A DNA stretch of 34,981 nucleotides. Source: Fidelibacterota bacterium. Its GTDB lineage: Bacteria; Fidelibacterota; Marinisomatia; Marinisomatales; UBA1611. Shown here one piece after another: positions 17,494 through 34,981 of the stretch. Positions within the stretch are counted from its first letter, which is position 1; each line of letters starts with the position of its first letter. The stretch covers positions 1 through 34,981 of the forward strand of contig JAYNUL010000006.1 of NCBI GenBank assembly GCA_038281125.1, read 5' to 3'. Below the pieces are notes generated by a model. It worked only from the letters and a program-made list of their open reading frames with translations, did not search any database and was not told where the DNA came from. The translations under genes and the position numbers were made by a program.

Positions 17494-18972
17494 CTAAAAT
17501 TTGCCTTGCTTGAGCTTGAAGCCTGATTTTTTACATGCTTTTTTCAGTTTCCTACTGTGCTTATTTGGACCACTGTAAAATACCTTCTGGATGGTGTCCT
17601 CTCCAAATTCAGAAAATATTTTTTCCCAGTCTGGTATTCCAAAACTAGATTTGCTCCACAGATTATCAACAAGGTCAATATTTGTTTCACTTTCTAAAAC
17701 ATCAGTAGATATATACATCATCTTTCTTGATATTTCGTCAGGAGATCGTTCCAAAAAATAAATATGATAATTAAAGAATTTTGGAGAACCATCTTCATCC
17801 ATCTCCTTTAGCATTTTAGTAAACCATTCAAAGTAGTTCCTTTCTTCTATCAACCAGTAGAGGTCAACTCTCTTTAGCTTGCCAATATCTGATCCATTTT
17901 TAAGTCGAATAACGATATCCTGGAGGATAGGTGCAATTCTTGAAATCCCATGACCTGCACCAACCAGTATTGCGTGACTGGTATCTAATAAATCCTGACT
18001 TGAACTGCCATAAGGGCCATCAATCCTTATGGTCCAGTCAAGTGTCTTATCACTACCTACAACCTGCAAGGTTGAATCATATAAGCGATCAGACCACTGG
18101 TTGTTCGATTTTACATGTAAAATTAAATCTCCCTCCTCTGTCTTTTTGATAATGTTAAAAGGATACCACTCTCCAGATGAGATTTCTTTACAATTGAGAT
18201 ACAAATAGTCACCTGGGGTATAGGTGAAGTTTTTTGGTGCAGATATGGTTAACTCCAGCACCTTTGAAGGCAGCAAACTGATTGAATGTAAATCAACAAA
18301 GGTTCGATTCTTTTTTCTGTTGACCAAAACATTATAAATAAAAATAATCTTTGGAATCATTAACCATTGAAAAAACCCTATGTCCTGGACCTGTATCGAT
18401 GAGATCATTGAACTAGACTTGTCTTCTATCACTTTAGAATCCACTTTTTGGTATCGATCAGGAACAAGCCAGTGTAATGGATTCACAGCAAAACCCTCCA
18501 TGAAATCAGGATAATCATTTGCTACATCAAGAAATTCACCAAAGTCAATGGTTCCACTGAAATCTTTATCTGCTTTTTGGAAAAATTCATCCACTAATAG
18601 ATCCAATTGAAACTCATCATAGTCTAAATTGTTTTCTAAAAAACTTTGTTTAATGAGTATTTTTAGCTCATTCCGATCTATAAATCCGTTGTTATCAAGG
18701 TCATGTAATTGAAAAGCGAATTTGATTTTATCTTTTGCAGATCCATCTACCATGGACTGAATAGTAGTTACGAATTCTCCATAGTCTACAGATCCGCTAG
18801 AGTCTTGATCAAATAGTTCAAACAATCTATCAGAGATTTCATAGTTTTCAATTCCAAGACCATTACGAAATTCTTCCTTATCGATGAGCTGGTCCTCCCC
18901 CGCAATCTCTCTAAATCTATTTTTAAGATCAATTAGGAATGGACCAACTAATTTTTTTGACTCGTTAATCAA
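17494..18972 (-). CDS. EF-hand Ca-binding protein fused to a NOX/ferric-reductase-type FAD/NAD(P)H dehydrogenase domain, with a single hydrophobic helix and no heme domain
   Basis: 492 aa with three canonical EF loops: DQDSSGSVDYGEF (aa 55-67), DLDNNGFIDRNEL (91-103) and DKDFSGTIDFGEF (135-147). One hydrophobic segment spans aa 199-217. NOX-like blocks follow: WYPFNI (HPFT-like), IDGPYG, ILVGAGHGISRIAPIL, LYWL...FEWF, VFYSGP, and a C-terminal Phe. Confidence 0.8.
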   Translation of the reverse strand: MINESKKLVGPFLIDLKNRFREIAGEDQLIDKEEFRNGLGIENYEISDRLFELFDQDSSGSVDYGEFVTTIQSMVDGSAKDKIKFAFQLHDLDNNGFIDRNELKILIKQSFLENNLDYDEFQLDLLVDEFFQKADKDFSGTIDFGEFLDVANDYPDFMEGFAVNPLHWLVPDRYQKVDSKVIEDKSSSMISSIQVQDIGFFQWLMIPKIIFIYNVLVNRKKNRTFVDLHSISLLPSKVLELTISAPKNFTYTPGDYLYLNCKEISSGEWYPFNIIKKTEEGDLILHVKSNNQWSDRLYDSTLQVVGSDKTLDWTIRIDGPYGSSSQDLLDTSHAILVGAGHGISRIAPILQDIVIRLKNGSDIGKLKRVDLYWLIEERNYFEWFTKMLKEMDEDGSPKFFNYHIYFLERSPDEISRKMMYISTDVLESETNIDLVDNLWSKSSFGIPDWEKIFSEFGEDTIQKVFYSGPNKHSRKLKKACKKSGFKLKQGKF

Positions 18973-19055: not shown

Positions 19056-20009
19056 ATGATACACGATAACATACTTAGTACTATCGGAAACACTCCAGTG
19101 GTGAGGATGAATAAAATAGGCAATGAACTAGAGTGTGAACTTTTCTCAAAGTGCGAGTTTCTTAATCCTGGTGGATCAATAAAAGATCGCATAGGCTGGA
19201 AAATGGTTGAGGACGCTGAACAATCTGGAAGAATTAAACCCGGAGACACGCTCATTGAACCTACTTCAGGTAATACTGGACAAGGGATAGCCCTCGCGGC
19301 TGCGGTAAAGGGATACGAGTGCATTATCACTCTACCAGAAAAAATGAGCAAAGAAAAGCAGATAGCTTTGGAGGCCTTGGGTGCTAAGATCATACGTACG
19401 CCCACTGAAGCATCGTTTGATTCACCTGATAGTCATATCGGGGTAGCAAAAAAGCTACAGGAAGAGATCCCTAATTCACATATTTTAGACCAGTATGCAA
19501 ATCCTTCAAACCCTGAAGCTCATTACGATGGCACTGCTCAGGAAATCTTAGATGTTTTCGGAAAGGATCTTCACATGGTGGTAATGGGTGTTGGTACCGG
19601 GGGAACCATTACAGGGGTTGCAAAACGATTAAAAGAAGAGATCCCTGATATTGTCATAGTAGGTGCAGATCCCGTTGGATCTATTCTTGGTGGAGGAACA
19701 GAGGTAGAGCCTTATTTGGTAGAGGGTATAGGATATGACTTTTTTCCTGAAGTGTTAGATAATAATCTTGTGGATGAATATGTAAAGACAGAGGACGAAG
19801 AATCATTTATTATGGCACGCAGACTAATAAAAGAAGAAGGGTTTTTGTGTGGCGGATCTTGCGGATCTGCAATGGTTGCAGCACTAAAAAGTGCAAAACA
19901 TTTAGACAAAGACAAAAAATGTCTGGTCGTTCTTCCTGATAGTATTCGAAACTACATGACCAAGTTTCCAAACGATCAATGGATGAAAGACCAAGGGTTC
20001 AAGGTCTGA
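19056..20009 (+). CDS. Cystathionine beta-synthase-like / cysteine synthase family PLP enzyme (catalytic core only)
   Basis: 317 aa. The block [66 protein letters not shown] closely tracks the CBS catalytic core as I recall it. The C-terminal [18 protein letters not shown] is also CBS-like. There is no Bateman (CBS-pair) domain and no heme domain. Confidence 0.9.
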
Positions 20010-21865
20010 AATCAATCGTTAAAATTTTAGCCTATACTTTAGGCATCATGCTATCTCTATGGGCAATGACTGTGTCCTACCTATCAAATGCACGTCCTGA
20101 TATAACCTGGGACTGGGACAGCATCAATACCAGAGATATACATTTCCCATCAAATTTCGCATGGGGCACTGCTACTGCGGCACACCAGGTTGAGGGCAAC
20201 AATTCCAATAACAACTGGTACCAGTGGGAAAAGGCAGTGGATGAAAACGGTGTCTCTAGAATCCATAATAATGATAGCTCTGCTATGGCAGCAGATCACT
20301 GGAATCGATACCCTGAAGACATCCTTTTAATGAAAGATCTGGGTGTTAGCCACTATAGATTTTCCATTGAGTGGTCTCGAATTGAGCCACAAGAGGGATA
20401 TTATGACCTTGAGTCACTTTCCCACTACCGTGAAATGTGCTTGGCAATGATAAAGGCTGGGATAACGCCAGTGGTAACCTTACATCATTTTACACATCCT
20501 ATTTGGTTTGAAGAGTTAGGGGCCTTCGAAGAAGAAACGAACACGGAGCACTTTACAAAATTTGCAAAACTTGTCTTCCAAGAGTTAATGGACATTGTTC
20601 CCATCTGGTGTACGTTTAATGAGCCCTCTGTTTTTGTTGCACAGGGATATTTTAATGGTATATTCCCTCCTGGTAAAAAGGATCCAGTATTAGCTGGCAC
20701 CGTTCTGGAGAATATGCTAAATGCGCACGTAGAGACCTACCATTTATTGAAAGCTATTCCAGGATCTGAAAAGGTTAAGATTGGCCTTGTTAAAAATATA
20801 TTTCAATTTGACCCTTTAAGGAGGTGGCATCTACTTGACTGGGCATTCAGCAAGATACTTAACGATGTTTATACAAATGCACCTTTAGAATTTCTAAAAA
20901 CAGGAAAATCTTCTTTCTATATGCCAGGTATGGTAGATAATGAAATGTTAAATCCAGAGGCACCTGGCACCCTTGATTTCATAGGCCTAAACTACTACTC
21001 CAGGATGCACGTTAAGGGAAGTCTTAATCCTAAAGAGCCATTTGTTTTTGATACCCGGCAACAGGATATTATGACTGATATGGGATACCCGCTATATGCA
21101 GAAGGATTTTACAGAGCACTTAAGACAATTAGTAATGTGGGGGTTCCGATATACGTCACAGAAAATGGCCTCGCAGATGATAAAGACACCGTTCGCCCTC
21201 TTTTTATAGAGAGGTATCTGTATGCGCTCAATCAGGCTCTCAAGGAGAGAATTGACATCCGTGGTTATTTCTATTGGAGTTTAATGGATAATTTTGAATG
21301 GGCAGAAGGCTACAGCATGAAGTTTGGCCTGTATGAGGTTAATCTGGAGACCCAAGAACGTATACTCAGAAAAGGTAGCCAGCCATTTATTGATATGGTG
21401 ACAAAGAGAGGAGCTGATGAACGAGGATATTTGGTAAGTGTAGGCGAAATAGCTCCAAATTTTACTATGGAATATATTACCGGTGAAAAAGTAAAACTGT
21501 CTGACCTCAGAGGAAAGGTTGTAGTATTACAGTTTACTGCGAGCTGGTGTTCTGTATGCAGAAAAGAGATGCCTCACCTTGAAAAAGATGTATGGCAGGC
21601 ATTCAAGGATAAGGATGTGGTTCTAATTGGAGTCGATCGAGATGAACCGCTGGATGTAGTCTTAAAATTTCAAAAAGAAATGGGAACAACATACCCACTC
21701 GCACTTGATCCTGGTGCAAACATATTTGGTCTCTTTGCTGACAAGAATTCTGGTGTGACACGAAATGTAGTCATTGACCAGAATGGAAAAATAGTATTCC
21801 TTACTAGACTTTTTGAGGAAAGGGAGTATCAGGAAATGATTAAAAAAATAGAGTCTCTTCTCTAG
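19979..21865 (+). CDS. Membrane-anchored GH1 beta-glucosidase fused to a C-terminal TlpA/AhpC-TSA-like thioredoxin-fold domain (WCSVC)
   Basis: 628 aa with an N-terminal anchor [23 protein letters not shown] after basic residues. GH1 signatures: [34 protein letters not shown] (acid/base Glu), YVTENG (nucleophile Glu), [13 protein letters not shown]. From about nt 21430 comes [41 protein letters not shown], typical of TlpA/ResA-like proteins. The start overlaps the CBS-like gene by 31 nt. Confidence 0.85.
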
Positions 21866-21870
21866 TTTTA

Positions 21871-22437
21871 TTATTCAGGCGCTGCAACGCTTGATGATCC
21901 CTTCATCCTGTCCATAGCCTGATCCAGTGCATCAAATGCCTGCCGTGCCTTAAACTCATTGTAGAGTGCCTCTTCTTTTTTTGCCTCTAGCCTTGCAGCA
22001 GCTTTTGCCTCTTCTTTAGCCTTATTTGCGTCATACGTTACCATAACAAAAACCCTATCCTTGAAAATTTCTGTTTTTTCTATGACACAACCTTTGAGTG
22101 TTGTGTTAACTAAAGATTTGGACACAGACTCAGTAAACTCTGTAGCACTTGCATCAGAACCCATTCCAGAGGCTTGCATATGATCATTTAATGCAGAATT
22201 AACTGTGGTCTCAACCGCTCGTGCTACTTCCACTCTAGCTCTCTCTGTTGCTACCTGTTTTGATAGATTAAACTGAGGTCGAAGAGCGTCTCCTACTCCA
22301 ACAAACTTATCATCAAATTTTGGAGGATTTAGATACCATTCAGGGAGGTCCTTATTATTTAAGGGTTTGGTCTTGGACCCTGCGCATCCAAAGAAAATGA
22401 TAGTTGCAACGATTGGTAGTAAAATATTTTTATACAT
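21871..22437 (-). CDS. LPP20-like lipoprotein
   Basis: 188 aa with lipobox IFFGCAGS. PEWYLNPP...FVGVGDA...ATERARVEVARAVETTV fits the LPP20-family pattern as I remember it. The C-terminus is an Ala/Lys/Glu-rich helix. Confidence 0.5.
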   Translation of the reverse strand: MYKNILLPIVATIIFFGCAGSKTKPLNNKDLPEWYLNPPKFDDKFVGVGDALRPQFNLSKQVATERARVEVARAVETTVNSALNDHMQASGMGSDASATEFTESVSKSLVNTTLKGCVIEKTEIFKDRVFVMVTYDANKAKEEAKAAARLEAKKEEALYNEFKARQAFDALDQAMDRMKGSSSVAAPE

Positions 22438-22520: not shown

Positions 22521-23624
22521 CTATTTCCGCATCATCAGATCATTACACTGTTCTAGTGCTTGGTTAACATGCTCAAGCATTTCAGGGTCATCCTTGATTT
22601 TGGATTCCATTGCAACATTTTGAAAGCTGATGCTATTGGATCTTAGGCTCAATACCTCTTTCATTTCCCTGATGGTTTCTCTGCTTGATCTAATATTAGT
22701 AAGAATGCTTGGACTATCTGCATATAGATCGTCTAGGGGAATGGTCGGGTCTTTATCCTGATACCTTTCGATGCGTTTCTTTAAATATCTGATCTTTGCC
22801 TCGTAATATGAACGATTGATTATGCGATCATTTTCGTCAATGATAGATACATCTACTTGATTTAAATAGCGCCCTTCCCTGCCTGATGAAAATACAAAAG
22901 GACCATTCTCTTTTTGATCCATCATTGGCCTAGTCATAAAGGTACTTCCACTTGTAAAAATTAAATCTGCCGATGGAAAAATTTCATGTAAATCACCATA
23001 AGTAGAGCGATCACTGTTAATAAGTAAAACAGTCATGTCTACCCTTCCCTCCATAGCACTTAAATAGATGTTGCCGGCAATGGTATAGTCATCTAAGATC
23101 AATTGTTCAATCGTATCAGGAACAAGATCAGTCAGTCCGATTACACCAAACCTGATTCCACCACGATTGATAAGGGTATAGGGCTTAAAAATTGGCTCTT
23201 CAGTATTTGGATCCAATAGGTTTGCAGATATGAAAGGTATGGAAGTCTGAGAAGCAATTTTCATCAGAGTATCAAGACCTGCAGCCAGCTCAAATTGTCC
23301 CACATTGATGGCATCACAGCCAATTTTATTGAATCCCTTGATCATAGCAGATCCACGATAGATTTCTGAGGATCGATTAGAGTCAACCAAAGAAGATGTC
23401 GTAAACAATAAGTCACCAGCATCAAGGATGATGGGCTGTATTCCTTGATTTCTTAGTTCATTTATTGCAGTTATTTTTCTAGACAGACCGCCCAAAGGTT
23501 TATTTGGTCATCCACATGGATCTAACTGACCATGAACACTGCCGGTAACAACTATGGTTGCAACATTCTGTGATAGCACCATGGTTGAAATCAGAAAAAG
23601 CCATGGAACTAATTTATGGATCAT
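22521..23624 (-). CDS. Exported metallophosphoesterase / 5'-nucleotidase-like protein with an in-frame TGA at 23510..23508 (candidate selenocysteine; alternatively a nonsense pseudogene)
   Basis: The track ORF starts at TTG 23495, but the frame continues upstream through one TGA to ATG 23624..23622. That ATG overlaps the giant ORF stop (ATGA). The upstream 38 codons, MIHKLVPWLFLISTMVLSQNVATIVVTGSVHGQLDPCG, supply a signal peptide and the first phosphoesterase motif region. Downstream are ILDAGDLLF (GD motif) and a degenerate GNHE-like VGQFE. Confidence 0.6.
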
Positions 23625-26600
23625 TTTAATAGCATAACCTTGTGGGTTCTAAAATTTGTACCATCATTGATGACTACGAAATAGATACCTGACGAAAGTG
23701 AGCTACCATCATCATTCCTACCATTCCAGACCACCTCATGTCGTCCCATATCCTTCCATCCACTCACCAACTTAGCTATTTGCTGTCCCTTTATATTTAC
23801 GATCGTCATCCTGACATTTCGAGGTTCAGGAAGTCCATATCTTATGGTTGTTGAAGGATTAAACGGATTTGGAAAGTTGCCAGAGATAGATAGTTCCTCA
23901 GGAATCATGGACAATACGTCACCAATTTTGGCTACCACATCAGACTCATCTCCTGCCACTATCTTCACTCTTCTATCATAGCGAGGATCGAGGGTTCCAA
24001 AGAAAAGTTGAGTGTCACTTTTCATGTCTATGACGTTTCTGGTTGAAAGGTCTACCAAACGAATATCAACGTCTACAGGTAAATCCTGAATCACAGACCA
24101 AGATAGATCAACATCAGAGTCTGTATCACTCCTGACATGCATATCCCAAACGTTTACCTGCTGGCCTAGAGAACGTATGTCAGAGGTAAGCTCAAGTGCC
24201 TCTCCCTCTAACCTGAAAAATAATGACACACCAGTGCCTGGAGATCGTATCTCAGGGTTATCATGCCACTCTAGCGCATCCTCGGCGGTCTCAAGCGCCC
24301 CTAATGTATTAATATGATCACCATGGGCACCAGAGCTCAAGCCTAGAGATACAAGCCAACCGCTTTCTTCCACTTTTCTTGCAACAGTAGTACCAGATCC
24401 AATGGATGGGTCTAAGGTTATGATCTGGTCAGTGGACATTCTGTTATATACCACATACCCATTCCATGGATCAAGCTCTGTGACCACAGGGCTCCAACTT
24501 TCTCCACTTATCCCATAAGTAAGAGGACCATAGAACTGTACCTGGTCCAGTTGCAACGGAACCTGGAATGGATAAGGGGAGCCGATAAAGTTCCATCCTG
24601 TTTTTAAAGTAATCTCTGTTCCAGCCATGTCACCTGTTTTACCTGCTGGGGTATCCATAGTTAGATTATCCTCAGTCTTCTGATAGATCCAATAGGATTC
24701 GGTACTGTTAAGATCTACCGGATTATCTTTGTAAGTGTTTGAAACATCATCATACCTAAACACTCTCCAAATGGTGTTATCCTGCGTACCTAATTCATCA
24801 AAAACCTGAGTGAGTCCAGTCTCATTTAATACAGCAGGCGTAGAAATAAGTCTCCATGCATCCATGGGAAGCCCTGTTGGATAGGCACTACCACTGGCTG
24901 AGTTTGTGGTGAGTGTCCCTGATGCAAAATTGACAGGAGCGCCAAGAGTATCGGATGAACTTGAAAATCCCAGTACATCCTGAGACATTACAAAGTACAG
25001 CAATCCACTCTGAGTAACAGAGCTACCAGGTATTGTTCCGCTGTAGGTACCCTGACCATCATTGACCATTGCGGTAGAGGAATAAGAATCACTTCCTCCT
25101 GGGGCATAGTAAAGAGTAACACTCTCAATTCCTGTATCATCAAAAACATTCACACTTACCTGAGCATCAACCAAAACGCCAGGTTCTACTGGATTCAGGG
25201 TTAGTGATGTGGCGACTGGACCCTTTGTATCCATAAAACTATTATCAGTCGAATTAGAAATGAGAGCCCACTGACTAAAGGACGACTGATTTTTGGCAAC
25301 TACTTGACCAGTAACCGTATCAACCTCAGTTTCTGATACTGCAATCACTTGCCATGGTTCCGAAGTTCCTGAATTACCTGGTCTCTTTGCTATACGTAAA
25401 GTATTAGGTGAATCAATTCCTGGTAAAATACTATATGACAATCTTATATCGGTAACAAAATTACCTTCAATATCCGTGGATATTTCGTAGTACTGTTCTG
25501 GGTATACTGGGTCTGTTAGAATACCGTCTGGGTCTACAAATGGAGTATTTTCATCAACGGGTGGTAGTGTTGATACCCCCTGAACAGTAACGGTTCCCCC
25601 AGCAGAGTTTACAAAATCCAATACCAGACCAATCGACTCTCCATTCTCATTCGTAAAGGTAATCGGTGGTGTGTTTCCTGATGGAATTGTTACCGTAGTA
25701 TCAGTTATTTGGCTGTCATCTCCTAGAAGATTTAAGAAAATATCCATCACATGGGTGTTTGATAATAATTCTGAAGGATTCTCTCCTGTATTTGTGTCGA
25801 AATAGATATTCCCATTGTAGATACCCGGGTCCAGGTTTGCGGTGTTAACAACGTTTACTACTATTGTGCTGTCGGTGGTACCAAGAATCTGTCCAGTTGA
25901 TACTGTTTCAAGCCATACCCATCCTGCAAAATCTGCACTGACTGAGGAAGCATAGTTCAATGGGTAGTCTCCACTATTGGTTACCTCAAGATCAAAAGAA
26001 AGATCATTGCCTTGATAGGTAACTACCGAGATTGAGGTTGCGGCAAACTCCGCAGTTGGAGGTATCCATCCTTCTCCTGCTGCACTCACTGCCACTATCT
26101 CATTTGGACTTGCAGGTGTGGTAAAGATTATGTTTCCAGCCGCAGAACCTCTCGCAGATGGCTGAAAGGTTAGATTCAATTGCCCCGCTGCATCAACGGG
26201 AAGAATAAGGCTTGTGGAAACATCTGTTGAAAAGTCGCTTGAACTCTCAACTGATATAGTAGCAATGGTAAGGTCAACATTTCCATTATTTTCAAAAGAA
26301 AGTACCTGTACTGAATCCTCCCCAATGAGAACCCCGGAAAAATCAATATTTTGAGTTGGTATTTTCAATCCAGACAACTCAATAATGGAACTTCCTGTAA
26401 GGTATGTATCGCTGAGAATAGTCAAATTCTCCTCATAGTAGCCACTAAGTTCAGGTGAAAAGGTCACCGTTAACTCACCGGATGCTCCAGGATCTAATGC
26501 CGTTGCTGTTGGACCCTCCCATGCTTGATCAAAAACTGCAAGAGGAAGATCAATTTCACTAATCGTTAATGTATCCGTTCCTGTATTTGTTAGGGTAAAT

Positions 26601-29600
26601 ACATAGTCTGCACTATCTAGTACATTACCAAAAAGGTGAGCTGAACTACTGATGGATAAAACAGGAGCAACGCTTCGACCATGAATCGGAATAGATAGAT
26701 CTCCATTACCAAGAGGATCATCACTTGTTATCTCTAAGGTAGTGCTTACCGTTGCAGTATCCGGTCTTGAAAAAGAAACATCAAGCCCGATGGACTCACC
26801 CGGCATAACCTCCACTGACAGATGTATTCGGTTTTGTATATTTCGGTTAGCTGAAGATTGTTTTTCCTCAGTGGTGTGTACGGAGCTTATTAAACCACCT
26901 AAGCTTGGCATGTGAGGGGTCTCACTATTTTGAATGTCGCCAGATCCTCTAGAGTCTTGGATAGTATTGCTTCCTATGTTTTCACCATTATTTGTTGGAT
27001 TTTGATTATCTACTCCTCCCTGATTGACTGAAACAGCATGATTACTCTCTTTTGATAAAAACGGATGTAATATATTAGCAATTCGGGATGAAGTTCTTCC
27101 CTCAGCTATGGCTACAGAAAACCCAGATAAAGTATCTTGAACAAATACACTATCAACAAATAAGGTATCTGTACCACTATTCGATATATCCAAAACCAGA
27201 GTTTCCACTACATCTACCCTCACGTTTCCATGATCCAACTCTTCCTCTGACAGAACAAGCACTGGCCATGAACTCGTTCCAGATAGCTCTATCTCTACGG
27301 TTGGAGCATCTAGATCATCCGTGGTAATTACCAATGTATCCAACAACGATCCAGGGGTGAGATCAGGATCAAAAGTGACCAATAATGTATCTGTTGTAAA
27401 CGCTGGAATCACCATCGAAGCCTCACTAACGCTATACCAATCAGAGGATACCTGGATCGAACTCAAGGTCAGATTACCGTTTCCAGCATTTTCAACTAAA
27501 AGTTCCCATACAGAAACTTGGTCATGATCAACAGAACCAAAATCGTTAATCGTATCACCATCCATCAAAGCAATAGTACCACCAATTGGGATTAAGGTAA
27601 GGGTATCATTCACAGGACTAAATAGATTAGAAGTATCCTGCGGAATCACCGCATAGTGGTACTCCTGACCATTAAGCAGATGTCCATCTTGTCCAGAATC
27701 CAAATAGCTAACAACATCATCTGCAAGCACAGCAAGTGTATCATAAGTACCGGTACCAATTGCTCTTATTATTACTAGCTCTTCAATATCACCATTGGCA
27801 TTACCACGAGGATCCAATGGGTATCCCCACGTTAACTCAATTTGGCCATTCCCACCTGTTCCAGAAAAGGCTGTAACTGCATCTGGTGGCTGTAACGTTT
27901 GATCATAAGGCAATGCACCCATATCCATCACTGTACCATCAAAATCTACAGCTCCCTCAGGATTTCCTGCATCAATCGCCAAAGATTCCCAGTTTAATGA
28001 AAAATTCAGTGCAGGACCATTTACAAATAATGGATCAACATCAAGATTACCTTCTCCATCTGCTCCACCACTAACAATAGAAAAGGATGTTGCCACGTTT
28101 CCAAAACTTCCAATTTCAGAGGCTCCATTTCCAAATAATATGGAATTATCTATATTGACAGAAGCCCCTACAGCAGCATAAACTGCTCCACCACTTCCAA
28201 CAGACGAATTGTAGGCAATTGTCATGTTGGACATGTCTGCTCCACCACTGAGAACTGCAATTCCTCCTCCACTTCCTGATGCTGCGTTTGCGGCAACGAT
28301 AACATGATCTAAACTTGGACTTGCACCACCATCAATCTTGATTCCACCACCTTGTGTTCCACCACCACCTAAAATGGTAAAGTTTGAAATTTTGGTGGTT
28401 TCATTCTGACCACCATCGATGGTTAGCACTGGACCAGTTCCATCTCCTTGTAGCATGGTCTCAATAGGATCGCCACCTCCACGGAATACTAAGTTCTTAT
28501 CCAAAAGCGATATACTACCTGAATAGGTTCCAGGAGCAACCTCAATCGTGTCCTGCTGATAGGCAGAATCAATAGCAGCTGCAATAGTCGGGTACTCTGA
28601 TGGAACAAAAAGAATGATATTTTCTGCAGCCTGCCCAGAAAGCGACATGGTGTAGCTCGGCTCGTCTGGGTCATTGCTACCAAAAATAAGTGTTGCGGTG
28701 TTAGAACCTTCCTCGGATGGCTCGTACACTACAGACATGGATAATGTATCTAGAAAGGATAATATAGACGCATCCACATCAATGGAAAACTCAGCATCTC
28801 CTTCAAGAATAATTTCTTCAATTTCAAGATTCGGGGTACCAATATTTACAATATCTAAGTTTAGTGTTCTTGAAAAACCCAGCCTGGTAAATGGGAACTG
28901 ATAACTGGATAAACTATCATTCCCATCACCATTGACTACAATATCTGCAAATTCATTGATAGAATTGCCTAAAAAAGAAACCTGTCTGACAGGGTTATAT
29001 GGATCATCTGTGTAGACCGTAAGCGTATCGGAATAGACCTCTACTGTTTCAGGAGAAAAAGTCACTGAAACTTCCAGTGAGTCTCCTGGTGGCACAATGC
29101 CACTAGTTGGTGTCAAAGTAAAATAATCGGTCTGGTTCATCATAGAATCAATTACCAGATCTGCAACGCCATAGTTGAGAATCCAAAAAGATAATTCAGA
29201 CTCTGTGCCTTCAGTCACGTATCCGTAGTCAAGCGCAGCACTTGCAAGAAGGAATGTACCAGAGAAGGCAGCATTTCGCTCTCCCGGAGTTCCCATGTTT
29301 CCACTTTCACCATAGGGTAGGCCTGCTGCCAACCAACTTTCAGCCAAACTATTATCATAATCTGGTCTAATGAGTTCCATGGAAGCTCCTGAGGAAAAAG
29401 GAAATGTATCATCGAAATCCACAACATCCATGATTTGCCCAGAACCATCTTTAATAGAAAGCGCTTCTCCAAAGTTGCTCAAACTGATAGTGGTACCATA
29501 TTCGTAATCGGGATCATATCCGCCATTTGATTCTATATCTGAGGATTGCCCGAGTAGGCTATACCCTCCACTTGGAATTTTTACATTTCCATCAAAAACA

Positions 29601-32600
29601 TGTGATTCTGTTGTAGAACCGCCCTCCAGCGTCCAGCCACTTAAGTGAATAGGTGTAAACCAGCCATTGTAGACCTCGAACCATTCCTTACCTCCATCAC
29701 TTCCTGAAGGATTTGGCATAATCTCATTGATGGTTATTGCATTTTCTGTATCAATTCTATGGGGTACATCTTCCATGTATGCTGACTCATTTAATTCACC
29801 TGGCCTCTCTACCAACACTATATGGTTGCTATTACCACTAATATCATAAAAAGCAGGAAAGTCACTTTCCAATGAACCTTCATTCATTCTCCAATATCCA
29901 AATGTTGTTTCATCAACCCCAAATCCTGCTACAGGCACGAATGGTTGATCATACAATGCTGAATAAGAAAATCTCAATTCATCAATTTGTTGGCCAGATG
30001 AGAAAGAAAAGTTATCTCCATAAACTAGATAAGTGGTTGTCATTGCTGGAGTACCATCAATCCAAACAACTGTATTTTCCTCTTTACCAACAATAGCTAC
30101 ATGGTGCCAGGAAGATGTATCTACCATATGAAATAGATCTGACTCCCCTGAGCTTTCTTGAACCTGCGGCAGATCTAAAGAAAGGCGTATACTGTCTCCT
30201 TCAACTGACTTTTTAAGAATTAGTTCTGTTGGAATTCCAAATAAATCCTCAGGAGACTCATCATTCGTATATTTGAAAAATCCTTCTAAAGTATATTGCA
30301 CCTCTCCTGGAATAATTAACTGATTTAAATCAACGATAGCATCAAATCCCTCTAGGAGAATAGAGGTACTATCTTGACCTAACCTATGATGTTCCATAAA
30401 ACCCAACAGGCCTTCATCACCATCGCTTTCAACAGCTGAAACACGATAAAAATAGGTCTGATCTGGAGCTGGTGAAGATTCAACATAAATGGGACTATTC
30501 ACTGTAGTATGAGGAGCGGCATCATACCAGTCCTCATTCAAATCAAAGGATCGATAAACATTGTACTGATCTATATTTGGTTGATTTTCTGTATCCCAGG
30601 TTAGCTCAACCCTTTGGTTATTTTGAACAGTCTTAAGGTTTTGGACTCTTAAGGGTAAGCCTGTTTGATCATAGAAAAATGCACCAATGTCTGATCTTGT
30701 ACCATCAATGTCCAATGAATCGGGATGGCCTGCATCAATCATTCGCGAATCTGGAAGCAGATGATAATCACCTGCTAAAAGATCTACGAACAATGGATCA
30801 AACTCAATATCTGCTACGCCCAGAGTTGTATTTGCATCAGGAGTAAACTGGCCCACATTATTATCAGAGTAGTTTATCAGACCTACAGTCCCGTATGTAA
30901 AACTGATATTATTCTCCTGATCGTAGAGATCCATCATAACATCCCCAGATGGATTATTACGGATGATGGTGTTTGAAATGTGGTGATCATTATCGTTGTG
31001 AAAGGATACACCATCCCCTCCAATATTATTTACAATGGTTGCTCCGTGCATGTGTATCTCATGATTAATAAAGATCCCTGATCCCCAGCTAACAGATGAA
31101 TTCCCACTGATCTCTGAATTCATTATTTTAGTCTGACCCTGGTTTTGTAATTGGATTCCTCCCCCATCGCCCTGGGAAATGTTTCCAGATATTTCTGACT
31201 CCCTTATGGTTAATTCAGCATAATTCGTGTCTTCATATATTCCTGCACCACCACCTTCAGAAGCATTACCAGACACAACCACATTATCTAGAGTGACGGT
31301 TCCCGTGTTTATGGACATACCACCACCATGCCCAGCGCTGTTTGAATTGATCGAGCTATTTAAAATGTTAACATCGGCATTTTCAACATGCATTCCACCG
31401 CCTCTGGTTCCAGCTGTATTATTACTAAAAAGGCTATTTTCAATGTACAGGGTCTCAATATTTGGATTCTGTACTTCGGAACCAAATAATATACCTGCAC
31501 CAAATTGATCAGCCGTATTATTAAGAAGGTGAACATTATTCATATCTAAAGTTGATCCAAGCGAATAGATTCCTCCACCATCCCATGCACTGTTACAATT
31601 CTCTATGATTAAATCCCTGAGTTTTACTAGAGAGTATCCTTGATATATCGATATTCCACCTCCTCGGTTCCAAGTGTAATCTTCCATAGCCCCATTTGCA
31701 TATCCATTACGTATAGTAAAGCCTTTTACTAGGGGAGATGAATACCCGTTCATTGGGAATTTGATGCAGATGCCTTTATCCTGCCCATCTATGATGGTGG
31801 ACTCTGTGCTTTCTCCCACAAGGCTTACATTTCGGACACTCTCACTCTCGTCACGACGATATACAAGGTTTTCATTATAGGTACCCGCAGACACAAATGC
31901 TGTATCACCATCACTTCCAAAGTTTAAAGCAGCCTGAATCGATCGAAAAGGATCATCGCTTGCACCGGTTGCGGTTAAATCATTCCCACTTTCGCTTATA
32001 TACCATTTAGGTCCATTATAATTGTTATTATAAGGGTAAGCTCCAATATCTGCTCTAGTACCGTCTACATCCACAGAATCAGGATGACCCGCATTTACCA
32101 GCATTGAATAGGCAAATAAATTAAAGTTATTGGTTGAGATATCTATAAAACTTGGTTCAGAGTCAACAACACCAAGATCGCTTATTGACCAGCCTCCATA
32201 ACTGTTTATATCATCAATACCACCCTGCAGGTTAGAATATTGAATAGAAAGATTGCTATTATCACCAAGTTCTGTAAATATTTGACTAAGTTCATTATTG
32301 GACTTTTTATTTTCATAGAAAATTGAATTCACAATTGTTGGTGATGAAGCATGGATTATGGCTAGCCCGCCTCCAACGTCCTGTGCTGTGTTGTCATAAA
32401 GATTTACTCTATCCAAATGAATAGTACTTGAGAATGAATAAATTCCTCCACCTCTATTTGATGCATTATTATAATTAACTAAAGTTCTTTCAATTTGGCC
32501 TGAGGAATTATCAAAATGCAATCCACCACCATCCAAATAAGAAATATTTGCAACAAATGATGAAACGTTTATGCTCACATCAGAATTTTGAACATACATT

Positions 32601-34981
32601 CCTCCACCTTTCCATGAAGAATTTCCATATACCTGAACATTAATAAAGGTAGGTCCACCATCTGATGAGATATCATCAACATGGATACCTCCACCATAGC
32701 CATCTTCAGCGCTTGAAGTATTATTAAAAACCTCTACATTCTCTAAGGTAGCACTACCATGAACCAACAGCCCTCCCCCTCGATGACCTGCATGGTTATC
32801 AGTGACAATAAGGTTTTTTAGTGTGGGGGACTCCTTAATCATTCCTCCAGCACCTTGATAACCCTCACCTCCTGTCAATGTAAATCCATCAATCGTAATA
32901 TTACTTCCATCAACCGTTAAACAATTTCCCTGATCTGCATTTGGTGCATCAATAATGGTTGACTCAGGTCCATTTACAGACTTTATCGTCAAATGATCAT
33001 AACCATTTGGCCCATAAGTATATATAGATTCATGGTAGGTTCCATCATGAACCAGTATAGTGTCCCCACCAAATTCACTGATAGCATCAATAGCATGATT
33101 AATTGTTGGAAATGGATTATCAGAAGATCCATTCCCGTATGGTTGTTGAGCAGAAACATTCCACTTTCTATTTTGATAGAATGCGACCCCATTGGAGTTC
33201 TCATATGCACCAATATCCACCTTTGAATTGGGTGGATTGATTCGATCATTTCCTTCTAAGTCAGTGTCGGTGACCTCATAAAAAAAGAAATCCTCTACAC
33301 CAGAAGGATAATTAAAAAATCCTTCTTGAATAGAATTTCTACCGCTTGAAATAGCAACTGATTGGTCAGATAAACGGTAATTACCACTGGAGGTATCCAC
33401 AAAGGAGGGTTCAAAGTAGTAATTGGAGGTGCTGAAAACATTGGTATTCTCATTAAAAACTCCTCCAATATTTATCCCACTTTTTATAAAATTATTGAAA
33501 AGATAGACATTTACAGCTTCTGAGGGTGTAAAGTTAGGACGGCTTCCTTGCCCATCATGCCATGTCAAAATAGAATTTGCAAGCAACAGCCTTGGATCTT
33601 GAGCGTATGCATGAATGGGATACCCATGATTGTTTGCAATTGTATTATTGATAAGCTTATAACGACCACTTCCAAATGCCAATGCAGACGCAGCATTTGA
33701 AAAATCTGATTGATCACCGACATAGCTATTATTGTAAATGAGTGAGTTGGTCGAAATAATATTTCCAGCCAATTGCCAGATGGCTGAACCTCTATAGGTT
33801 GAGGAGTTGCTATGCATGATGACATTATTGAGCGTTACATTTGCATCCTGAGCAGCTAATGCTCCTCCACCATATGCACTGTTATTTGAAAATGAGACAT
33901 TATGGAATTCCGCCATCGACGTTTGAAAAACGTATGCTCCTCCTCCAAAAGGAGTATCATCACCATCAGGGATCGTCCAATTTTGCATACCTGTTCCATT
34001 AATTATTGATGCACCATGAAGTTGGAAATTCTCAATGGATCCAAAATTAAAATTAAAATCCTCTAAACCAGTTACTACGATTCCTGTTCCAGAAAAATTT
34101 GCATCAATAACAGTTGCTTCTTTGCCTGCACCAGAAACCACAAGGTTTTTACCTCTCACTACTAAATTTTCTTGGAAAGTGCCACCCGATACAAAAATAC
34201 TGTCACCATTATCTGCAAGGTTTAATGCTGCTTGAATGGATGAAAGTGGAAACTCTGTGTTGCCAATCCCAGATGTATCATTCCCCGCAACCGATACATA
34301 CCATTTATCATTATTCGAAAATGGAGATAGGTACGCCCCAATACTAGAACGTTTTCCATTTACATCAGTGGAATCAGGGTGACCAGAATGTACGAGAAAT
34401 GAGGAAGGTAATATGTTGAAATTATTATTTTGGCTATCGATAAATTTCGGATCGATATTATCCAGATTTCCTATACCCCAATTTAATGTCCCGTTGTTAG
34501 TCTCAACGCCATCCTGTCCGCCTTGGATAAAACAGTAATCTATATTTACAGTACCGGGATCATCTGATTGTTCAGAAATATGGATATTTTGATCACCATT
34601 ATTGGTAACAATAGAATTAACCAGTGTTGGTGATCCTCCTGGGTATGTGAAAACACCGTTTAACGTATTATTTGCAATAGTGGCATTGTTTATAATTGGC
34701 TCACTATACCAGGAAAAAATACCGGATTCATTATTATATATATGCACATTATTAATTATGCTTTGGGAAGGTCCTTGAATACCAACAGATCCAGCCGATC
34801 CAATATTATTTTTAACGATCAAGTTCTTTAGTGTTGGACTAGAAAGGTTAACTCTGATGCCTCCACCAGATGGATAATTAGTGTCTATTCCATTTTGTAT
34901 TGTAAAATTATCTAATAACGCAGCACTTGTTTCTCCATTGATAAATTGTACTACGCTGGTGATTTGATTACCATCAATGAT
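23621..34981 (-). CDS. Giant modular cell-surface protein (more than 3786 aa; N-terminus beyond the window) with parallel beta-helix modules, FN3, LamG, lamin-tail and Ig-like domains, and a T9SS C-terminal sorting domain
   Basis: One uninterrupted frame. Translating upstream of the track start (TTG 34822) stays open to nt 34981 and continues the same repeat type (NFTIQNG...PSGGGIRV). Many GGG[IMLA] beta-helix rungs are present, and there are five cap motifs of the type DP.F.D...NY.L...S..[13 protein letters not shown].DIGA. Confidence 0.9.
   Translation of the reverse strand: [3786 protein letters not shown]
23624..23899 (-). other. T9SS (Por) type C-terminal sorting domain of the giant protein
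   Basis: The last roughly 90 aa are [43 protein letters not shown]...[22 protein letters not shown]. This is the characteristic pattern of FCB-group secretion-tail domains. Confidence 0.8.
29330..29745 (-). other. Lamin-tail-domain (LTD)-like module within the giant protein
   Basis: [40 protein letters not shown]...[19 protein letters not shown]...ASMELIRPD matches the LTD pattern (INE...P.......EW.E.yN......L.GW.L). Boundaries are approximate. Confidence 0.6.
29930..30370 (-). other. LamG/concanavalin-like module within the giant protein
   Basis: YTLEGFFKY...[23 protein letters not shown]...[12 protein letters not shown] is typical of LamG-type jelly-rolls (W.HVA......... .y.DG, DE.R.). 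Boundaries are approximate. Confidence 0.5.

Follow-up and report, generated by a model that had tools for sequence, protein, structure and literature searches.

The locus described here raises the question of why an otherwise open gene should be interrupted by a single TGA codon near its 5' end, directly after codons for Cys and Gly. The gene lies on the minus strand of a 34,981-nucleotide stretch of contig JAYNUL010000006.1 (assembly GCA_038281125.1) from a Fidelibacterota bacterium, a stretch that was analysed at its full length and is referred to below as the window. A preliminary description of the window had noted that the open reading frame (ORF) is called from a TTG at position 23495 and that the same frame is open through one TGA to an ATG at position 23624, and it had proposed that a selenoprotein is hidden here by truncation of the ORF. 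The coordinates were confirmed, and the proposal is well supported by the conservation of the UGA in family members, by a covarying RNA hairpin behind it and by the occurrence of Cys at the same position in distant homologs. We consider it highly probable, on these comparisons of related genes, that the in-frame TGA is a selenocysteine (Sec) codon with a functional Sec insertion sequence (SECIS). The gene is a member of the published marine COG0737 UshA-like selenoprotein family, which is of the Cys-x-Sec (CxU) type, and is not a new find.

The 38 codons that precede the TGA encode MIHKLVPWLFLISTMVLSQNVATIVVTGSVHGQLDPCG, and this sole in-frame TGA (23510..23508, minus strand) is followed by PNKPLGGLSRK and by a total of 328 further codons to the TAG that ends the frame. 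Across the junction the window protein reads HGQLDPCG-UGA-PNKPLGGLSRK, with the Pro-Cys-Gly-Sec motif of the CxU family placed after the first metal motif of the fold and followed by GGL[SA]R; Pro-Cys-Gly-Sec is common to all of the related loci that we compared. A signal peptide is predicted at the N-terminus of the joined product (Table 1). The N-termini of orthologs are likewise hydrophobic, and paralogs carry a lipoprotein signal that ends in Ser-Cys. The AlphaFold2 (AF2) model of an ortholog has a low-confidence helix at residues 2-16, in the signal-peptide region.

A protein search with the joined product yielded 360 relatives, and the few of these that carry a source name are proteins from metagenome-assembled genomes of Candidatus Marinimicrobia. 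Most of the relatives in the databases are called at 310-324 amino acids (aa), start with MGGLS... and are truncated at the same spot as the ORF in the window; a minority are full length and bear Trp at the column of the UGA. Alignments with the full-length homologs span 100% of the window protein. At the DNA level, one genome of each GTDB species was scanned, and 79 loci were detected that encode proteins with 26-73% identity. The N-terminus is included in 77 of these, and nearly all of the loci with taxon-naming titles are from Marinimicrobia, Neomarinimicrobiota or Fidelibacterota; one of the homologous loci, L081, lies on the complete Fidelibacterota chromosome CP070656.1. The N-terminal 38 residues are shared among the homologs, TGA stands directly after Pro-Cys-Gly in each of the 77 loci in which this position can be read, and in distant homologs the column is occupied by Cys.

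In the mRNA, the UGA is followed by the hairpin that the preliminary description had drawn, in which a 5' arm UUUGGGC (23496..23490) and a 3' arm GUCUAGA (23484..23478) enclose the loop GGUCU (23489..23485). The stem has 7 base pairs (bp), three of them G-U; it overlaps the codons for Leu-Gly-Gly-Leu-Ser-Arg, and the apical loop begins 18 nucleotides (nt) after the UGA. The resemblance to the SECIS of Escherichia coli fdhF, which had been pointed out in the preliminary description, is correct in its particulars: the 48-nt string TGACACGGCCCATCGGTTGCAGGTCTGCACC... has a 100% identical counterpart within the annotated fdhF gene of 5419 of the 5426 complete E. coli genomes, and there, too, GGUCU begins 18 nt after the UGA. 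Bacterial SECIS elements typically are stem-loops that lie just after the in-frame UGA and have a G-containing apical loop of small size (PMC1088965), and the 6-7-bp stem, the GGUCU loop and the location directly downstream of the in-frame UGA agree with this description.

Comparison of the homologous loci shows that the RNA element is under selection, with covariation at synonymous codon positions. Codons 6 and 7 downstream of the UGA both specify Gly; the first of them is GGC in 70/70 distinct sequences and the second is GGU in 69/70, as compared to a background of 14.7% for GGC and 37.8% for GGU among the Gly codons elsewhere in the same genes. In the 54 sequences with Ser in the motif (Ser-type), the 6-bp helix formed by columns 31-36 with columns 42-47 around the GGUCU loop is 96.9% paired. 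Pair 33:45 of this helix, which joins third positions of a Leu and a Ser codon, is represented by GC in 30 sequences, AU in 19, CG in 2, GU in 2 and UA in 1, and is unpaired in none. The covariation score of the Ser-type set was reached by 0/500 shuffles, and registers slid along the alignment are at most 54% paired. The 17 Ala-type sequences have their 3' arm displaced by one base and a GGUCUN loop; their helix is 100% paired and likewise exhibits compensatory changes. The same helix is recovered unguided by RNAalifold.

Searches for additional RNA structure or additional selenoproteins gave little. A further helix, in which GUGG would pair with CCAC around the UGA, was considered and rejected, since it exhibits no covariation and its pair 12:30 is unpaired in 34/54 sequences. 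There was no Rfam match at the gathering threshold in the window, and a permissive scan of the element returned chance snoRNA-like matches only. No family besides the UshA-like one emerged when the window and the related loci were scanned for other in-frame UGA codons followed by GGUC hairpins, and the 352 remaining in-frame UGA candidates in the same DNA, once clustered, proved to be antisense or off-frame shadows only.

An exhaustive profile search over 1.84 billion representatives brought in more distant relatives. Among these are full-length proteins that have Cys at the Sec column, in the forms PCGC, DCGC, PCEC and similar, as well as many proteins of ~470-490 aa that start with MGGLSKK, which are long forms truncated at the same UGA. 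In all seven Cys-form genes with DNA, the column is encoded by a real TGC or TGT codon. The two Gly codons of these genes vary (GGC in 2/7, GGU in 3/7), and the in-register hairpin is absent in 6/7. Since the Cys forms vary in their Gly codons and mostly are without the hairpin, the constraint on the nucleotide sequence is tied to the UGA. The remaining Cys form (L097:1129-2250, ETEPCGC-RTPLGGLAK) keeps CUUGGC-GGUCUU-GCCAAG and is adjoined by the same gene for a flavin mononucleotide (FMN)-dependent dehydrogenase as is Marinimicrobia subgroup 4; this gene apparently underwent a Sec-to-Cys replacement not long ago and still has a relic SECIS.

The mechanism that we propose is that a single gene (22521..23624, minus strand) encodes what would be an exported UshA-like Pro-Cys-Gly-Sec selenoprotein, and that UGA codon 39 would be decoded as selenocysteine during translation. 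The mRNA hairpin, which lies 12 nt past the UGA, would recruit SelB with Sec-tRNA(Sec), as does the fdhF SECIS in E. coli; the conservation of the RNA argues for this role. In the product the N-terminal 5'-nucleotidase (calcineurin-like) fold is retained; most of the dimetal ligands, the catalytic His-Asp dyad and the C-terminal nucleotide-binding domain have been lost, and a Cys37-Gly-Sec39 loop has been added directly behind the first metal motif.

The preliminary description had anticipated an unusual selenoprotein, an expectation that has to be given up in view of the literature. Zhang & Gladyshev 2008 (PLoS Genet, PMC2398784) reported the family as 'COG0737, UshA-like', with the motif CxU, 76 Sec sequences in 20 Global Ocean Sampling (GOS) samples and 92 Cys homologs, and counted it among the 20 major marine selenoprotein families. 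The GOS Dataset S1 contains 71 DPCGU sequences under #COG0737_UshA, some of which match the paralog groups found in the current analysis. One of them, JCVI_READ_1020539 (VLSQDVATIVVTGSVHGQLDPCGUPNKPLGGLSRKITAINELRSQGVEPIILDAGDLLF), is nearly identical to its counterpart in the window protein (VLSQNVATIVVTGSVHGQLDPCGUPNKPLGGLSRKITAINELRNQGIQPIILDAGDLLF). Two reviews list the UshA-like family and credit the 2008 paper (PMC9312934, PMC13188914), and the later of these, from 2026, assigns the NCBIfam model NF041198 to it and NF049981 to a second UshA-like family (PMC13188914); the family goes unmentioned in the selenoproteome papers of 2005, 2006 and 2007. The best NCBIfam match of the joined protein is indeed NF041198 (UshA_like_PCGU, 'UshA-like (seleno)protein'; E=1e-57). 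Pfam gave no match to the joined protein. Membership in SoxB was also considered and was rejected at 47.8 bits versus a cutoff of 550. The value of the locus as a discovery is small, with the family, the CxU motif and a near-identical sequence all published in 2008 and an NCBI model in existence; its value for annotation lies in the hundreds of copies in protein catalogues whose sequence is cut off at the UGA or has an erroneous Trp.

Several observations weigh against the assignment of the UGA to selenocysteine. Taken alone, the window hairpin is weak, as had been said of it from the start (-5.3 kcal/mol, with its three G-U pairs), and it folds no better than shuffled sequence (z-score 0.13). 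The minimum-energy structure of the surrounding segment, 23440..23515, prefers other pairings. Folding of this segment, which had been put forward as a check, is uninformative for the single sequence and gives the helix by RNAalifold when the alignment of homologs is used. The minimal stem-loop of fdhF has an energy of -5.7 kcal/mol, close to that of the window hairpin, the significance of which derives from the comparison across homologs and not from its own folding energy. The match to NF041198 scores 195.9 bits, below the curated cutoff of 275, and covers positions 17-381 of the 519 in the model. When this model was scored against the window protein and ten database relatives (P0009, P0035, P0043, P0140, P0141, P0149, P0156, P0168, P0215 and P0232), all of the short forms (~370-400 aa), every Marinimicrobia subgroup among them, attained 170-230 bits and the long forms (~520 aa) 490-530. 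With the scores of short forms below the cutoff, the window protein therefore represents a shorter, divergent subgroup and not an equivalog of the long form, and proteins of Marinimicrobia are annotated as 'hypothetical protein' because the curated cutoff misses the short marine form. Finally, in the window and ~0.7 Mb of related loci, which amount to <1% of each genome, tblastn with E. coli queries detected no selA, selB or selD and ARAGORN found no tRNA-Sec among 77 tRNAs; the window itself has no tRNA in such a scan. The literature on Sec use in Marinimicrobia, SAR406 and Marinisomatota yielded only a table in which three SAR406 single-cell genomes, all incomplete assemblies, have an 'orphan' SelD with no SelA or SelB detected (PMC5029168).

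The lack of Sec machinery in the related DNA and the SAR406 genomes with SelD but without SelA and SelB (PMC5029168) would suit an explanation in which UGA and hairpin together form a regulatory signal for termination or read-through, or else a site at which Trp or Cys is inserted by a near-cognate tRNA, without any use of Sec. We consider this improbable, however, in that the loop sequence and the 18-nt spacing match the SECIS of fdhF, distant homologs place Cys in this column (the classic Sec/Cys signature), the family is curated as selenoproteins and SelD is in fact present in SAR406, where the single-cell assemblies are incomplete. Much less credence still can be given to the alternatives that the preliminary description had named, namely that the gene is a pseudogene with a nonsense mutation or that positions 23508..23510 were missequenced or misassembled. 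It is true that the frame has just one stop and that a single transition separates TGA from TGG, but the same TGA is found in 77/77 loci of independent origin, spread over different species, assemblies and single cells, and both of its flanks are still conserved at the protein level; the conserved TGA therefore excludes a pseudogene, an assembly error or a chance stop.

A reassigned code, in which TGA would specify Trp or Gly, draws on the at least 15 database proteins that have Trp at the column. The DNA behind three such proteins (nine contigs) has TGA at this position, however, and the stored proteins were not obtained from it under code 11; the Trp in the databases is therefore an artefact of gene calling under code 4 on short contigs. 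Each of the nine homologous contigs that were checked has exactly one internal stop. The preliminary description was also right that TGA serves as a normal stop codon in the window, since TGA ends 6/21 long ORFs and the extensions by read-through are only 1-42 codons, from which it follows that the window uses the standard code; we attach next to no probability to reassignment. The same negligible weight is due to a division into two genes, the first for a leader peptide of 38 residues and the second for an enzyme with its start at TTG 23495. Most of the homologs are annotated in this way by ORF callers, but the truncated product would be without the signal peptide and the invariant HGQLDPCG, which is metal motif I of the fold, and the TTG is a Leu codon in the hairpin, its place being taken by CTG, CTA, ATG or ATC in other members of the family. 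Where UGA is treated as a stop, gene calling truncates the gene at the internal TTG; under code 4, it places Trp at the Sec position.

With regard to function, sequence-profile and fold searches against the PDB assign the N-terminal ~270 residues of the window protein to the 5'-nucleotidase/UshA fold. The AF2 model, which is for an ortholog of 65-66% identity, has a predicted local distance difference test (pLDDT) value of 82.7 and a predicted template-modelling (pTM) score of 0.83, with less confidence in the Cys-Gly-Sec stretch, and its best Foldseek matches are UshA of E. coli and CD73, at E about 1e-17 and TM about 0.55-0.63. The metal site of UshA has the ligands D41, H43, D84, N116, H217, H252 and Q254, with H117-D120 as the catalytic dyad; these residue identities were checked on the E. 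coli sequence. The window protein has S, H, D, Q, N, G and T at the ligand positions, i.e., it keeps H43 and D84 (2/7), and has Phe and Ala at the dyad, in agreement with the earlier remark that its metal motifs are partly degenerate. Similar degeneracy of the metal ligands marks the whole CxU/CxC clade; a relative outside the CxC type keeps 6/7 ligands (with His at Q254) and H117, and has Asn at D120. The C-terminal substrate/nucleotide-binding domain is absent, the protein ending at 367 aa and the UshA-type model matching its N-terminal domain only. Cys37, Cys103 and Cys360 are conserved among the homologs. Because the metal ligands are mostly lost, the most likely activity is a Cys/Sec-based redox or sulfur/selenium-transfer chemistry in the periplasm, rather than phosphoester hydrolysis. 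No function for the UshA-like CxU family was found in the selenoprotein literature, and the degenerate metal site, together with the rhodanese/MauE neighbourhood considered below, might provide a testable lead to it.

Table 1. Positions in the window of the predicted selenoprotein gene, its parts and its neighbours
Feature	Coordinates	Strand	Basis or remark
Complete coding sequence of the predicted selenoprotein	22521..23624	-	Translation; 367 codons, including the UGA (predicted Sec) at codon 39
Start codon ATG	23624..23622	-	N-terminal 38 residues conserved across homologs
Predicted signal peptide MIHKLVPWLFLISTMVLSQN	23565..23624	-	Read from the sequence; export predicted
Cys37 codon UGU, predicted partner of Sec in C-x-U	23514..23516	-	15/15 full-length homologs and every locus
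UGA codon 39, very probably read as selenocysteine	23508..23510	-	UGA in 77/77 informative loci; Cys codon in distant homologs
Putative SECIS hairpin	23478..23496	-	Covariation, RNAalifold, codon fixation, absence in 6/7 Cys forms
TTG taken as start by ORF callers	23493..23495	-	Leu44, within the 5' arm of the hairpin
Stop codon TAG	22523..22521	-	Read from the sequence
Upstream gene for a 3733-aa secreted protein	23621..34822	-	Beta-helix/Ig-like; C-terminal sorting domain of the type IX secretion system (T9SS)
Downstream gene for a 188-aa predicted lipoprotein	21871..22437	-	Lipobox FFGC; no family match above threshold

The predicted selenoprotein gene is flanked by genes on the same strand (Table 1). 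Its ATG and the TGA stop (23623..23621) that ends the ORF for the 3733-aa protein overlap as ATGA, an arrangement that suggests translational coupling of the two genes. The large protein has right-handed beta-helix repeats in its N-terminal part, HYDIN/VesB-like Ig domains and a C-terminal Por_Secre_tail. A large upstream protein recurs in related loci, and in L010 and L012, the nearest of the orthologous loci, the gene for the 188-aa predicted lipoprotein occupies the same downstream position.

The members of the family fall into paralog groups that differ in their termini and in their gene neighbourhoods. Group 1, to which the window copy belongs, combines a plain signal peptide with a C-terminus that lacks a His tail, and genomes with a group-1 copy also carry a copy of group 2. 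Proteins of the latter group have a lipoprotein signal and, for the most part, end in a His-rich tail (HxGHxH), and in most loci of this group the gene order is SUI1, UshA-like gene, rhodanese and MauE/DoxX; in loci L020-L059, SUI1 lies upstream, with rhodanese at ~+1.07 kb and MauE/DoxX at ~+1.5 kb. In group 3 (L066-L073, L087) rhodanese and MauE are located upstream instead, and group 4 has neither as a neighbour. The C-termini of groups 2 and 3 are rich in His, with examples such as HSGHDH, HHGHNH and SHHNHNHSKKHGKK (L021, L022, L030, L066; P0035, P0043), which suggests that these tails bind metal. Altogether, genes for rhodanese (PF00581) and/or MauE/DoxX (PF07291) adjoin the UshA-like gene in 47/72 loci of the family, but not in the window. 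The rhodanese protein of these operons has a hydrophobic N-terminus, and the MauE/DoxX membrane protein has a CGC motif.

DoxX and the rhodanese SseA reportedly form a membrane oxidoreductase complex in Mycobacterium tuberculosis, and DoxD is a subunit of thiosulfate:quinone oxidoreductase. It is conceivable, although we hold it to be rather doubtful, that the short marine forms are metal-free, dead phosphoesterases that have been turned into periplasmic Sec-based sulfur or thiol relays operating with a membrane-anchored rhodanese and a MauE/DoxX membrane protein. If so, the role of the relay could be in the handling of thiosulfate, persulfides or disulfides in SAR406/Marinimicrobia, and the copy in the window would serve as a specialised second paralog associated with a giant surface protein of the T9SS.

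Other ORFs of the window also have noteworthy domain compositions. The ORF at 19979..21865 on the plus strand (628 aa) encodes a GH1 beta-glucosidase (residues 56-466) fused to a TlpA/ResA-like thioredoxin domain (~485-620) with the motif WCSVC, which is an unusual combination, and it overlaps the end of the upstream ORF for a pyridoxal phosphate-dependent enzyme (19056..20009) by 31 nt. The 492-aa product of 17494..18972 on the minus strand has weak similarity to EF-hand/lanmodulin-like (~45-147) and flavin-reductase-like (~228-379) domains, all of it far below the cutoffs.

Among known systems, the closest to the window protein is the COG0737 UshA-like/NF041198 family, with which it has in common the same Pro-Cys-Gly-Sec in the same place on the same fold; unlike the long form on which the 519-position model is based, the window protein and the other short marine forms cover only positions ~17-385. 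A second Sec-containing derivative of the UshA fold (PMC13188914) resembles the window protein in its derivation, but is matched weakly (E=7e-8, 32 bits versus a cutoff of 140) and differs in the spacing of the Sec motif. The N-terminal calcineurin-like dimetal phosphoesterase fold is shared with E. coli UshA, the CD73 5'-nucleotidases and SoxB, from all of which the window protein is set apart by the five-residue insertion Asp-Pro-Cys-Gly-Sec after motif I; it differs from E. coli UshA, in addition, by its 2/7 ligands, its Phe-Ala dyad and its lack of the C-terminal domain. The DoxX-SseA and DoxD systems exhibit the same pairing of protein families, rhodanese with MauE/DoxX, that is found in the gene order beside paralogs of the family, although here the pairing concerns the paralog groups rather than the window copy. 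The RNA element, for its part, differs from the SECIS of E. coli fdhF in that it consists of only a 6-7-bp upper hairpin without a bulged U, is without a supported lower helix around the UGA and overlaps the conserved Leu-Gly-Gly-Leu-Ser/Ala-Arg codons, but the two elements are alike in their location inside a coding sequence, in their small, G-containing loop and in the placement of the apical GGUCU exactly 18 nt past the UGA.

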